28,535 bases of DNA. Source: a virus. The stretch lies in UHGV virus genome UHGV-0260790; one strand, written 5' to 3'. Every line of letters begins with the position of its first letter. Within the stretch, counting starts at the first letter, position 1. The position numbers were made by a program, and so were the translations under genes. This document shows, one piece after another, positions 1 through 28,535 of the stretch. The notes beneath the pieces were generated by a model. That model ran no database searches. It saw only the letters and a list, made by a program, of their open reading frames with translations, and was not told where the DNA came from.

Positions 1-138
1 TCCGAGACGAACGCGAAAGCGTCGGAAACCAGCGCAGAATCCTCAAAAACGGCTGCCGCATCGTCCGCCAGTTCGGCGGCGTCATCGGCATCATCGGCGT
101 CTGCTTCAAAAGATGAGGCGACCAGACAAGCGTCCGCA
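1..138 (+). other. Inverted copy of an internal stf coding segment (wrong strand relative to the gene)
   Basis: Plus-strand frame 1 from nt 1 reads SETNAKASETSAESSKTAAASSASSAASSASSASASKDEATRQASAA, which matches the expected continuation of lambda Stf after the minus-strand gene breaks at nt 139. Confidence 0.75.
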
Positions 139-173
139 GCGCTGGTTTCCGACGCTTTCGCGTTCGTCTCGGA
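1..173. repeat. Fold-back inverted repeat at window start: arm 1-35 is the exact reverse complement of arm 139-173, spacer 36-138; left arm touches the window edge and may extend beyond it
   Basis: Base-by-base comparison: reverse complement of 1-35 (tccgagacgaacgcgaaagcgtcggaaaccagcgc) equals 139-173; pairing fails at 36/138. Confidence 0.9.
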
Positions 174-1252
174 TGTCTTCGCTGCGGAAGCAGACCTCGC
201 TGCTGCGCTGGCCTGTTCAGTGGCTTCGCCAGCCTTCGTTGTGGCTGTTGAAGCAGACGATGCGGCACTTTCTGCCGATTTTCCGGCGGCAGTGGCACTG
301 GCTGAGGCCTGCCCGGCACTTGTTGACGCGGCACTGGCAGATGATGCAGCCGCTGTTTTTGAGCCTGCCGCAGCTGAGGCGCTCTGTCCCGCTGCCGTCT
401 CAGAAGACTTAGCGTTCGTCTCGGACGTTTTTGCCGCCTTCGCGGAATTTCCTGCCGCCGTTGCCGAGGAAGTTGCGCTACTGGCGCTCGAGGATGCGTT
501 CGTTTCTGATAATTTCGCTGCCTCTTTTGAGGCCGCCGCATCCCGGGCTGAGGTGGCAGCTTCTGACGCTTTCGTGGTCGCGGTGGATGCAGAAGTGGCT
601 GCTGATTGTTGTGACGCTGCGGCATTCGTTTCTGACGTTTTCGCGGCACTGGCACTGGTAGCCGCCGCGCTTTTTGAGGACTCTGCAGCGGCAGCACTTT
701 TTGATGCTTCAGTAGCCTTTGTTGATGCCGTTCCTGCGCTGGAAGACGCTGACTGAGCCGACGTCGCGGCCTGCCCGGCTGATGTGCTGGCTGCACGTGC
801 TGAGCCTGCAGCATCAGTCGCATGGGTTGCCGCCTCACGGGCTGATGTGCCGGCATCGCTGGCTGACTTCTTCGCGGCTGCCGTGTTCTGTGCCACCGCG
901 GACGCGTTACGCGCCACCTCTTCCACCATCAGCTCAAAACGGCGCAGTGCCTCCGGACGGGCATCATCCTCCGTCATGGCACCGAGAAAATCATTCAGCG
1001 TACCGGGTCGGGAATCTTCATACACGGTGATGGTCCCGGCATGTGACGGCGGGAATCCTTCCACCAACAGAATAACGCTGTACTGACCGTACTCAACGTC
1101 CATGCTGTAACGCCCGGCTTCATCCGGATTTTCTGAGGCCAGCGTGTTCACCACCACCGTGGTGCTGTTACGTTTTGCTTTCAGCTGGATTGTGCAGTTC
1201 TGTACCGGTTTTCCTGTGCCGTCTTTCAGTACACCTGAAATCTTTACTGCCA
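139..1252 (-). CDS. stf: Side tail fiber protein Stf, N-terminal ~371 codons; native reading frame ends at the fold-back junction at nt 139
   Basis: Minus-strand ATG at 1250-1252 with GGGGTGA-like RBS; translation starts MAVKISGVLKDGTGKPVQNCTIQLKAKRNSTTVVVNTLASENPDEAGRYSMDVEYGQYSVILLVEGFPPSHAGTITVYED, then Ala/Ser-rich KTSETNA repeats typical of lambda Stf; not in the ORF track because no in-window stop. Confidence 0.8.
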
Positions 1253-1264
1253 TATTCACCCCAC

Positions 1265-1290
1265 AAAAAAGCCCGCCTGAACCGGCGGGC
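1265..1290 (-). terminator. Putative intrinsic terminator downstream of lom
   Basis: Minus-strand hairpin GCCCGCC-GGTTCA-GGCGGGC followed by a run of six U; lies between lom stop (1318) and stf start (1252). Confidence 0.55.
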
Positions 1291-1317
1291 TGTCATAACA
1301 CTGTGTTACCTGGCTAA

Positions 1318-1917
1318 TCAGAACTTATAACCGACACCCACGATGAAACCGTCAGTGCGCCAGTCGCCACTGCCGGAGCCTTCATAAGCAATATCAATGG
1401 CCACGGATTCGGTCGGGTTAAACTGCACGCCAGCCCCCCACGCCAGAGACGTGTTGCTGTGGCGACCGTCATCACTTCCGGTCAGCACATCGTGCTTTTT
1501 CCCCTTGTTGTCAGTTACGCGGAGATAATCCCCGGAAAAAGTCGACACACGGCTGTAAGCCACGCCTGCCATCGCATACGCGCTGAACCATTCATTCACG
1601 CGTACAGACGGCCCCGCCATTACGCTGAACCAGCGGTTACGCACGGAATCTTCATGCCAGCGGGTATCGCTGTAACGGGTCAGCTGGCGATTCTTGTCTC
1701 CTGCATAGCTGAACGACGTCACCATCCCCAGTGTGTCCGTAAACTCATAACGGTATTTCACGTTAATCCCGTTCAGATCATCACTGCCGGGAACGTTCGT
1801 CCGGGCATGAAGATACCCCGCGCTCAGCGTGGACTGATGTTCAGACGCCCATGCAGGCGCACCGGATACGGCCAGACAAATGGCTGCGGACAAAATGGCG
1901 GCATAAAGTTTACGCAT
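1318..1917 (-). CDS. lom: Outer membrane protein of the Ail/Lom/PagC family
   Basis: 199 aa ORF with signal peptide and C-terminus AYEGSGSGDWRTDGFIVGVGYKF identical in style to lambda Lom; sits immediately downstream of J as in lambda; N-terminal half diverges from lambda Lom. Confidence 0.85.
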   Translation of the reverse strand: MRKLYAAILSAAICLAVSGAPAWASEHQSTLSAGYLHARTNVPGSDDLNGINVKYRYEFTDTLGMVTSFSYAGDKNRQLTRYSDTRWHEDSVRNRWFSVMAGPSVRVNEWFSAYAMAGVAYSRVSTFSGDYLRVTDNKGKKHDVLTGSDDGRHSNTSLAWGAGVQFNPTESVAIDIAYEGSGSGDWRTDGFIVGVGYKF

Positions 1918-1983
1918 AATTACCTCTCGCTTTTCTGCAATAAAAAAGGCGTCATTTCTGACGCCCGTTCTGGGTTATAAAAT

Positions 1984-5385
<3,402 letters not shown>

Positions 5386-16645: not shown

Positions 16646-20326
<3,681 letters not shown>

Positions 20327-24038: not shown

Positions 24039-25121
24039 ATGAAAAAATTAACAGTGGCAATTTCTGCTGTAGCTGCATCAGTACTGATGGCGATGTCTGC
24101 TCAGGCAGCTGAAATTTATAATAAAGACAGTAACAAGCTGGATCTGTACGGGAAAGTTAATGCTAAGCACTACTTCTCCTCTAATGATGCAGATGATGGT
24201 GATACTACTTATGCCCGTCTTGGCTTCAAAGGTGAAACCCAAATCAACGATCAACTGACTGGTTTCGGTCAGTGGGAATATGAATTCAAAGGCAACCGCG
24301 CTGAATCTCAAGGTTCCTCCAAAGATAAAACCCGTCTTGCCTTCGCTGGCCTGAAATTCGGTGACTACGGCTCCATCGATTACGGCCGTAACTACGGTGT
24401 AGCATACGACATCGGTGCGTGGACTGACGTCCTGCCAGAATTCGGTGGTGACACTTGGACTCAAACAGATGTGTTCATGACTGGTCGCACCACTGGTGTT
24501 GCAACTTATCGTAACAACGACTTCTTTGGTCTGGTTGATGGTCTGAACTTTGCTGCTCAGTATCAGGGTAAAAATGACCGCACTGACGTAACTGAAGCTA
24601 ATGGTGATGGTTTCGGTTTCTCCACTACTTATGAGTATGAAGGATTCGGTGTAGGTGCAACCTATGCTAAATCTGATCGCACTAATAATCAGGTTATCTA
24701 CGGTAACAACGGTCTGAATGCTTCTGGTCAAAATGCTGAAGTATGGGCAGCTGGTCTGAAATATGATGCGAACAACATCTATCTGGCCACCACCTATTCT
24801 GAAACCCAGAACATGACTGTTTTTGGTAATAACCATATTGCCAACAAAGCACAAAACTTCGAAGCTGTTGCACAATATCAGTTCGACTTCGGCCTGCGTC
24901 CATCCGTTGCTTACCTGCATTCTAAAGGAAAAGACTTGGGTGTTTGGGGTGATCAGGACCTGGTTGAATATGTTGATGTAGGTGCAACCTATTACTTCAA
25001 CAAAAATATGTCCACTTTTGTTGACTACAAAATCAACCTGATTGATAAGAGCGATTTCACGAAAGCATCTGGCGTTGCTACCGATGATATCGTTGCTGTA
25101 GGTATGGTTTACCAGTTCTAA
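24039..25121 (+). CDS. nmpC: Outer membrane porin, OmpC/OmpF/NmpC family, prophage-encoded moron
   Basis: 360 aa ORF with signal peptide [23 protein letters not shown], mature N-terminus [18 protein letters not shown]-terminal ...VAVGMVYQF; AAGGG RBS; opposite strand to Q/S/R as for nmpC in DLP12. Confidence 0.9.
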
Positions 25122-27183: not shown

Positions 27184-27370
27184 GCTTCACCTCCGCAGAG
27201 GTCAAACGCTGGATACAATATATCGCAGGTGCATTTCTGCATCTGTGGAGGGAGAAGAGAGTTTGGATTGTGTGTGCGCATAAACGTCCCCGTTTAGCGC
27301 AGAAGTCACCGGAGTTGTTCAGGCTCCGATGACATGATTATGGCGAGTTGATTATCGCAAATCAAAGGTT

Positions 27371-27727
27371 TTAATTGTGCTTTATTCCTTCAAGCGTTGC
27401 CTTCATACCAACCAAAGAAATGTTTAGCTCTCCAACTTTCTCAGGGCTATATAATTCAGAATGAAGCCAATATTCTGATTTATCTAAACATCTTTTAGCC
27501 AGCTCTCGATCAAAGTCTACGACTTGGGAAGACGCTTCATACCAAAGCCTATAAAGTTTTTCTTCTTCGTTTGGGTTATTAGGCTCACCACGTTTTAATT
27601 TTTCAGTATATAAAATTGTTGAATAAATCGCAGGAGTTAATCCAGTGATTGCCCTCTGCCGCAGATCGGATTTGTTTGTTATCCACCCCAACAGACGATC
27701 TCCCATCCATGTGATAATTGTATCCAT
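27371..27727 (-). CDS. Hypothetical protein, AT-rich orphan ORF (possible moron)
   Basis: 118 aa ORF MDTIITWMGDRLLGWITNKSDLRQRAITGLTPAIYSTILYTEKLKRGEPNNPNEEEKLYRLWYEASSQVVDFDRELAKRCLDKSEYWLHSELYSPEKVGELNISLVGMKATLEGIKHN; GAAGGG RBS 8 nt upstream of ATG; visibly lower GC than flanking genes; no family recognised. Confidence 0.6.
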   Translation of the reverse strand: MDTIITWMGDRLLGWITNKSDLRQRAITGLTPAIYSTILYTEKLKRGEPNNPNEEEKLYRLWYEASSQVVDFDRELAKRCLDKSEYWLHSELYSPEKVGELNISLVGMKATLEGIKHN

Positions 27728-28146
27728 GCTTTAGCCCTTCTTAGTAAATAGTGTGTAGGGCGACTGAAGGACCGAGTTTATGCTTTTTCGCATTGCTTTC
27801 AGTTAGTACACCGGTATCGCACCGGAAACAATCCTACGGCAAATTGGTTGTCTGACCTCTCGGTTTTTCGTGCATTAACCGATACCCACTACAGTCTCGG
27901 CGAAAGCTGCACACCCCCAGGGTGTACTGGTAGCACTCGGCACAGCCTAGCACGCCACTTTCTTCTCACTATCCAGTCTAATTTTATCCCCTAGTCAGAC
28001 ACTCAGATGTAGTGCTCCGCAGCGGCATGCGGGGGAATACAAAAACTCGGACAAAATTGGGCCCTCCTTTTTGAATCACTCGCGGGGATGTAGTTATTAA
28101 TACATGGAAAAAGATCTGTTTTCAAATCCAACATTATATGGTTTCA

Positions 28147-28535
28147 ATACCACGGGGTGGCTATGTGTTTCTCATTGTTAATTGGAATCTACTGTAATCG
28201 ATCCGAACGTAAATGCGGCAAAACTCGACTCCACTTATCATCCTGCCACGGCCGGAATTTTACATGTGCCGTCGGCACAGTTGGTGTGGCGGCCTCAGTC
28301 CGGAACAATTTGAAAACAAGAACCTCGCTTAGGCCTGTGTCCATATTACGTGGGTAGGATCAAATATCCCCAGATACTCAATAAGGCACAGGCAATCCTT
28401 GCCAGAGAAACGGCACATGTAAAATTCCGGCCGTGGCAGGATGATAAGTGGAGTCGAGTTTTGCCGCATTTACGTTCGGATCGATTACAGTAGATTCCAA
28501 TTAACAATGAGAAACACATAGCCACCCCGTGGTAT
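28147..28535. repeat. Perfect 126-nt inverted repeat: arm 28147-28272 pairs with arm 28410-28535, spacer 28273-28409; right arm ends exactly at the window edge and may extend beyond it
   Basis: Reverse complement of 28410-28535 equals 28147-28272 at every position checked; pairing fails at 28273/28409. Confidence 0.9.

Follow-up and report, generated by a model that had tools for sequence, protein, structure and literature searches.

The stretch of DNA analysed here (UHGV virus genome UHGV-0260790, 28,535 nucleotides in full, hereafter the window) proved, when read on the minus strand, to be the late region of a lambdoid prophage. The landmark genes are the following.

1253, minus strand: start of stf (side tail fibre)
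1318-1917: lom
1984-5382: J
24039-25121, plus strand: porin gene encoding 360 aa, between Q and the lysis genes

Beyond J, the window continued through tail, head, terminase, and lysis genes, the porin gene, Q, and the nin region, to approximately 27.7 kb. Outside the two joints described below, it was co-linear with ordinary lambdoid prophage loci at 95-100% identity. The porin gene carries an ompC/nmpC-like annotation in the co-linear locus of E. coli KSC207 (L002), and a porin gene is likewise located between Q and the lysis genes in DLP12. Downstream of stf-tfa, relatives of the window carried genes with Omptin, AraC-type, and DUF4434 domains. The K-12 map position matching these genes, which we take to be the DLP12 site, suggests that the prophage occupies that site, here with an intact late operon. 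Most likely the window comes from an E. coli lambdoid prophage located at the DLP12 position.

The stf reading frame opens with an ATG at 1253 on the minus strand and encodes a lambda-type side tail fibre N-terminus (MAVKISGVLKDGTGKPVQNCTIQLKAKRN...). Matches to this gene were annotated as 'prophage tail fiber N-terminal domain-containing protein'. The frame read to ...AAKTSETNAKASETSA up to nt 139 and then turned into nonsense (ADACLVASSFEADADD...); past residue 372 it was Asp/Ala-rich and remained free of stop codons until the window edge. The shaft region of Stf, encoded at 139-900 on the minus strand, is long and Ala/Ser/Thr-rich, with repeated KTSETNA-type motifs that form the direct-repeat families D1-D4. 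The plus strand of positions 1-138 translated to SETNAKASETSAESSKTAAASSASSAASSASSASASKDEATRQASA, a peptide that starts with SETNAKASETSAESSKTAAASS and ends with KDEATRQASA. We found that this peptide corresponds to native Stf residues 361-406, and that the structure at the left end of the window can be divided as follows.

1-35, plus strand: left outer arm (segment A), encoding Stf residues 361-372 (SETNAKASETSA), antisense to the window's stf gene and ending at the window edge
36-138, plus strand: left loop (segment B), the part of stf that natively comes next (residues 373-406), here reversed against the remainder of the gene
137-144: surroundings of the non-native joint 138/139, with a 3-nt overlap GCG (139-141) common to both partners
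139-173, minus strand: left inner arm, rc(A), within genuine stf (codons 361-372)
139-1253, minus strand: 5' part of stf, residues 1-372 of a 1075-aa protein, co-linear with the upstream lom and J

Positions 1-35 and 139-173 are exact reverse complements over 35 nt (100% complementary), with 103 nt between them, and the outer arm abuts the window edge at position 1. The 35-mer of the arm was present in two copies only in the window, with none expected from 100 shuffles, and analytically an exact inverted pair of 35 nt would be expected approximately 3e-13 times in 28.5 kb. The left inverted repeat cannot be a product of chance. In single-stranded folding, positions 1-173 formed a perfect 35-bp stem (z = -11). 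Weaker inverted matches (I2-I4, 1-78 versus 327-686) were also found, and these arise because 1-138 belongs to the same repetitive gene in the opposite orientation.

To determine the native arrangement, relatives were retrieved by looking up the exact J protein. This yielded draft assemblies from independent samples, among them GCA_016672265.1, GCA_049927335.2, GCA_031074505.1, and GCA_050023835.1, with GCA_026775005.1, GCA_053969655.1, and ENA ERZ27268740 as further relatives. In seven draft assemblies, window positions 139-2000 matched the J-lom-stf region at 100% identity. In the same seven, positions 1-141 matched the following stf sequence, also at 100%, on the opposite strand and with a 35-nt overlap with the first match. 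In all seven, stf was co-linear and continuous, encoding a Stf of 1075 aa followed by a Tfa (tail fibre assembly) protein of 194 aa. A more distant complete genome (L001) showed the same relation of 1-141 to stf at 97% identity. The best matches among complete genomes were 97.1% identical over the left 9 kb and 98.8% over the right 8 kb. Terminal inverted repeats were found in none of eight related loci, several of which reach contig ends. The co-linear stf of the seven assemblies is evidence from relatives and is compatible with a fold-back in the source sample.

Comparison with one of the 100%-identical relatives (L004, contig DADCZT010000043.1) allowed the left end to be resolved base by base. 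Segment A equals L004 15210-15244 on the sense strand (100%), and window 1-141 equals L004 15210-15350 (100%), directly contiguous in the native gene. The L004 locus contained the 35-nt arm once, on the sense strand alone. The inverted repeat is hence a duplication made by the joint and not a repeat that existed beforehand. With the native order written as U-A-B, the left end of the window reads A-B-rc(A)-rc(U), and 138/139 is thus a fold-back (inverted duplication) joint. Across it, the native sequence reads ...CCGCAGCGAAGGG and the window ...CCGCAGCGCTGGTTTCC; with the break marked, the native ...CCGCAGCG/AAGGG becomes ...CCGCAGCG/CTGGTTTCC. The joint creates an 8-nt palindrome, CAGCGCTG (137-144), and both native break points end in the 5-mer CAGCG.

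These results bear out much of what a preliminary description had claimed from the window. It had the stf frame folding back at 138/139 between exact 35-nt arms, with the left arm cut by the window edge, and the arm pair, the translations, and the alignment to native stf agree on each of these points. Its expectation that native Stf runs from KASETSA into ESSKTAAASS was confirmed in L004, whose Stf shares an identical 372-residue prefix with the minus-strand Stf of the window. The further statement that the next 46 Stf residues are encoded on the plus strand holds for 34 of them (373-406), while the other 12 (361-372) repeat residues already encoded on the minus strand. The description had also named a co-linear stf in reads as grounds against the fold-back, and the seven assemblies, which match both sides of the joint at 100% and have a straight gene, come close to such evidence. 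The truncated, chimeric Stf ORF appears to be a by-product of the fold-back and not a variant of the gene.

In L004, the stretch past the 194-aa tfa gene (17357-19026) contained a methyltransferase gene on the opposite strand and a second tfa-like fragment of 101 aa. This stretch may be left over from an alternative or invertible fibre module.

Mu, P1, and e14 are known to have tail-fibre segments that invert. We considered a programmed tail-fibre switch, in which a Pin/Gin/Cin-type serine invertase flips the segment between the 35-nt inverted repeats and changes the host range. The repeats do flank a segment inside stf, and pinQ adjoins tfaQ in the more distant L001. However, the native locus has one copy of the arm and hence no pre-existing pair of sites, and flipping the 103-nt loop would restore no frame beyond it, as the outer arm would stay antisense. 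The loop encodes 34 Ala/Ser-rich shaft residues, with neither an alternative C-terminus nor a tfa gene, and the joint, at residue 372 of 1075, is a long way from the end that binds the receptor. Within approximately 6 kb downstream of stf, where the loci end, the 100%-identical relatives L004-L010 contained no Resolvase-family gene. No dyad-symmetric 12-2-12 crossover site was seen by eye in the arms; a search for a Pin/Gin crossover site there returned a lone half-site-like GGAAACC with no dyad. We regard such a switch as extremely improbable.

Homologous recombination between oppositely oriented stf genes of two lambdoid prophages, leading to a prophage-mediated chromosomal inversion, could also bring stf sequences into opposite orientations. 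E. coli genomes have a median of three stf-like places, and the N-terminal half of stf is widely shared. Recombination between inverted copies, however, gives hybrid co-linear genes, whereas here a gene runs into its own antisense strand and 35 nt are duplicated. Homology is also needed for a crossover, and only 3 nt are common at the joint. Both sides of the joint were 100% identical to a single stf allele. This origin is very unlikely.

A second fold-back was found at the right end of the window, where 28147-28272 and 28410-28535 are exact reverse complements over 126 nt (100%), separated by a 137-nt loop. Its features are as follows.

28147-28272, plus strand: right inner arm (segment A'), the last co-linear native sequence, in the region of a gene with a P22AR C-terminal domain in the prophage nin region
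28265-28279: 7+1+7 palindrome TGTGCCG-T-CGGCACA at the non-native joint 28272/28273
28273-28362, plus strand: right loop, part 1, the terminal 90 nt of IS3, inverted relative to the probable native order
28363-28409, plus strand: right loop, part 2, the reverse complement of the 47 nt of prophage sequence found natively after 28272
28410-28535, plus strand: right outer arm, rc(A'), ending at the window edge

The outer arm finishes at the last base of the window, 28535. Positions 27300-28272 were co-linear with E. coli KSC207 and 100% identical to it, and 28363-28535 was the reverse complement of L002 4848-5020 (100%), that is, of the arm and the 47 nt natively following it. Part 1 of the loop matched sequence annotated as 'IS3-like element IS3 family transposase', and a further locus (L003) carried the identical IS3 end next to a different native upstream sequence. 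From these alignments, the native order in the source would be U'-A'-(47 nt)-IS3, while the window reads U'-A'-rc(IS3 end)-rc(47 nt)-rc(A'). The overlap at this joint is approximately 0 nt, compared with 3 nt at the left joint. Native A' and B' both end in the 7-mer TGTGCCG (chance approximately 3e-4), of which the CAGCG at the left joint is a weaker form. Palindromes are present at both joints because the native break points share this terminal 7-mer or 5-mer as a direct repeat, approximately 105-137 nt apart.

The IS3 end (...CATATTACGTGGGTAGGATCA) adjoins prophage sequence in the region of the gene with the P22AR C-terminal domain, and the probable native insertion point of IS3 lies 47 nt past 28272. 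IS3 at this exact site was absent from the complete E. coli genomes in the collection. Look-ups of a 118-aa protein and of TerL for the right ends of relatives returned only contexts that are very common and unrelated.

The presence of the same kind of structure in unrelated nin-region/IS3 sequence does not support the earlier view of the fold-back as a feature of stf. The fold-back belongs to the ends of this sequence and is unrelated to stf as such. The right end also bears on both explanations considered above: it has the same structure with no fibre gene for an invertase to switch, and recombination between the stf genes of two prophages leaves it unexplained.

With both ends of the sequence running into their own reverse complement, we also considered that the window represents an N15-like linear phage-plasmid sequenced round the turn of its covalently closed hairpin telomeres. 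Against this, the loops (103 and 137 nt) consist of ordinary coding or IS sequence and not of a palindromic telomere resolution site, and the sequence terminates within stf and within an IS3. In relatives, identical DNA runs on co-linearly to tfa and to chromosomal genes (Omptin, AraC-type, and others), and the genes present are those of an integrated DLP12-type lambdoid prophage. Hairpin telomeres are accordingly scarcely credible as an explanation.

We then asked whether either joint occurs elsewhere. The first 1300 nt of the window matched 5,086 E. coli and 235 phage records, and among the matches listed none crossed 138/139; the best stf matches listed had their first aligned query base at 139 or beyond, with starts at 144 or 210 for a few phage records. 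A 31-mer over the left joint and a 32-mer over the right joint each had no match in the viral, genome, and metagenome contig collections (viral_contigs, genome_contigs, and metagenome_contigs). Exact look-ups of the chimeric partial Stf, of a 51-aa ORF over the right joint, and of a 47-aa phage/IS3 fusion ORF returned no record. The joints were thus not reproduced in independent samples with the same flanking sequence, whether in the seven assemblies, the listed matches, or the three contig collections.

The observed part of the case is the geometry of the fold-backs, their presence at both termini, their absence from relatives, and the normal gene in those relatives. The reading we consider probable (roughly 80%) is that the window is a whole contig with fold-back chimeric sequence at both of its ends, produced during library preparation, amplification, or assembly. 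Under this reading, the window would be identical with the complete contig, and the joints would have been made in vitro or in silico, not in the cell. At both joints, sequence continues into the reverse complement of a neighbouring part of its own locus, with a single-copy loop between, and both duplicated outer arms sit at the termini, cut by the window edges (1-35 and 28410-28535). The chimeric terminal pieces are read-sized (left, 138 nt; right, 263 nt). At both ends the true order would be U-A-B and that of the contig U-A-rc(B)-rc(A), as if a strand ending at the far side of B had resumed on the opposite strand approximately 100-140 nt behind the tip. Such molecules form from a 3' end that snaps back or switches to a displaced or complementary strand. 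Strand-displacement amplification, end repair after fragmentation, and PCR are known settings in which fold-back molecules form. An assembler following a chimeric joint would re-enter its own k-mers in reverse and halt, leaving a truncated outer arm.

Published artefacts are of this kind. In multiple displacement amplification (MDA), inverted sequences with intervening deletions make up more than 85% of chimeras and are attributed to priming by a displaced 3' end on a neighbouring strand within one branched molecule (PMC1855051). Around short inverted repeats or palindromes, libraries made by sonication or enzymatic fragmentation contain chimeric reads that join a strand to its inverted complement (PMC10908179). 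Inverted junctions found in single reads have likewise been regarded as PCR artefacts of the sequencing protocol (PMC10766183). The loops of 103 and 137 nt, the overlaps of 3 and approximately 0 nt, and the terminal pieces of 138 and 263 nt fit these artefacts.

Several observations speak against a technical origin. Two independent chimeric joints closing one contig are unlike the output of a well-behaved assembler facing rare chimeras. In relatives, the assembly passes through stf without a break. A repeat boundary is therefore not enough to account for the left break, and the joint must have had real support in the data set, with the chimeric path competing against the native one. Arm lengths of 35 and 126 fit no single k-mer size (k or k-1). 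Simple snap-back priming predicts an inverted micro-repeat, whereas the joints show a direct one (TGTGCCG; CAGCG). In addition, a genuine inverted triplication of the segment would yield an identical contig.

Some narrower technical origins were tried and rejected. The signature of a single assembler was set aside on the mismatch of the 35-nt and 126-nt arms with one k, and the SKESA paper describes no handling of hairpins, palindromes, or chimeric reads. An origin in the de Bruijn graph with no chimeric reads was rejected because the joints share only 3 and approximately 0 nt with the native sequence. Head-to-head ligation at restriction sites was rejected for the left joint, where GCGC is native only at the A end and not at the B end, and for the right joint, where a native palindromic site is lacking.

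The inverted triplication has to be weighed in its own right. In this case, an inverted duplication or triplication in vivo would involve a segment of approximately 28.2 kb, from about stf codon 372 to position 90 of IS3. It could take the form of forward-inverted-forward copies or of a hairpin-capped linear amplicon, generated by template switching or fold-back priming at both ends. The models are the tandem inversion duplications (TID) of Salmonella and E. coli, reportedly described by Kugelberg et al. in 2010, and ODIRA in yeast. From a short-read assembler, the copies would emerge as a single collapsed contig. Fold-back joints that bound one segment at both ends are the topology that an inverted triplication predicts. 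Both joints form short palindromes, and the left break does not lie at a repeat that breaks assemblies of relatives. The loops of 103 and 137 nt are also near the junction spacing of ODIRA, given as 'within a hundred base pairs' (PMC10766183).

Other evidence makes such an event unlikely, if less so than the three explanations set aside above. The pre-existing inverted repeats appear trivial or imperfect, with GCG/CGC (3 nt) on the left and an imperfect match of 5/8 with a 3'-terminal mismatch on the right. Neither joint was found in any relative, complete genome, or contig collection, and no selective reason to amplify phage late genes is apparent. In wild-type E. coli, near-palindromes on the kilobase scale are unstable when their spacers are short (SbcCD), which also argues against a triplication. 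The segment seems to lack a phage replication origin, as none was identified in the window and the O/P genes of L002 lie approximately 3 kb past the right joint, whereas the first criterion for ODIRA, one derived from yeast, is an origin of replication inside the amplified segment (PMC10766183). The ODIRA paper is itself the one that takes single-read inverted junctions as PCR artefacts.

If the triplication were true, the source strain or a subpopulation of it would carry an approximately 28-kb block of late genes as an inverted triplication or a hairpin-capped amplicon. Template switching at both ends would then have taken place during in-situ replication or repair of the prophage, and the prophage would be the centre of an ODIRA/TID-type amplification occurring naturally in a bacterium. 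Real joints would be of moderate interest for the mechanisms of genome instability and would say nothing special about the function of stf.

On balance, the fold-back in stf is most likely a technical fold-back at the contig ends and not a biological property of the tail-fibre gene, and its main value lies in quality control. A terminal fold-back of this kind yields a false truncated, chimeric tail-fibre ORF, together with the false signal of a perfect inverted repeat whose folding energy is strongly negative. It also mimics an invertible segment, a terminal inverted repeat, or a hairpin telomere. Scans of sequences should therefore check both ends for an outer arm that touches the edge and down-weight findings of this type.

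Compared with known systems, the left end resembles the Mu G/Gin, P1 C/Cin, and e14 P/Pin switches in that inverted repeats are found in the tail-fibre gene of an E. coli prophage, part of which is reversed. It differs from them in that the repeat was created by the joint, with no native pair of sites, the invertase is absent nearby in identical relatives, the position is wrong, and there is no alternative C-terminal exon or tfa. The two ends together share with TID and ODIRA (PMC10766183 for ODIRA) a single segment with fold-back joints at both ends, arms approximately 100 nt apart, and a collapsed graph that would look identical. In contrast to those systems, no convincing pre-existing short inverted repeats, identified origin of replication in the segment, apparent selection, or other isolate with the joints was seen here. 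With the fold-back chimeras of MDA and of sequencing libraries (Lasken and Stockwell 2007, PMC1855051; the PDSM model, PMC10908179), there are two differences. The published chimeras are single reads, whereas those described here are assembled consensus at both contig termini, and the published priming model does not include a direct 7-mer repeat at the two break points, as seen on the right. The likeness is otherwise close. In both, sequence is joined to the reverse complement of what lies just behind it, with a single-copy segment between, and the overlap at the joint is short (3 and approximately 0 nt here, compared with complementarity of 2-21 nt in more than 70% of MDA junctions, PMC1855051). 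Both also have short palindromes at the joint, read-sized pieces, and joints that are missing from independent samples.
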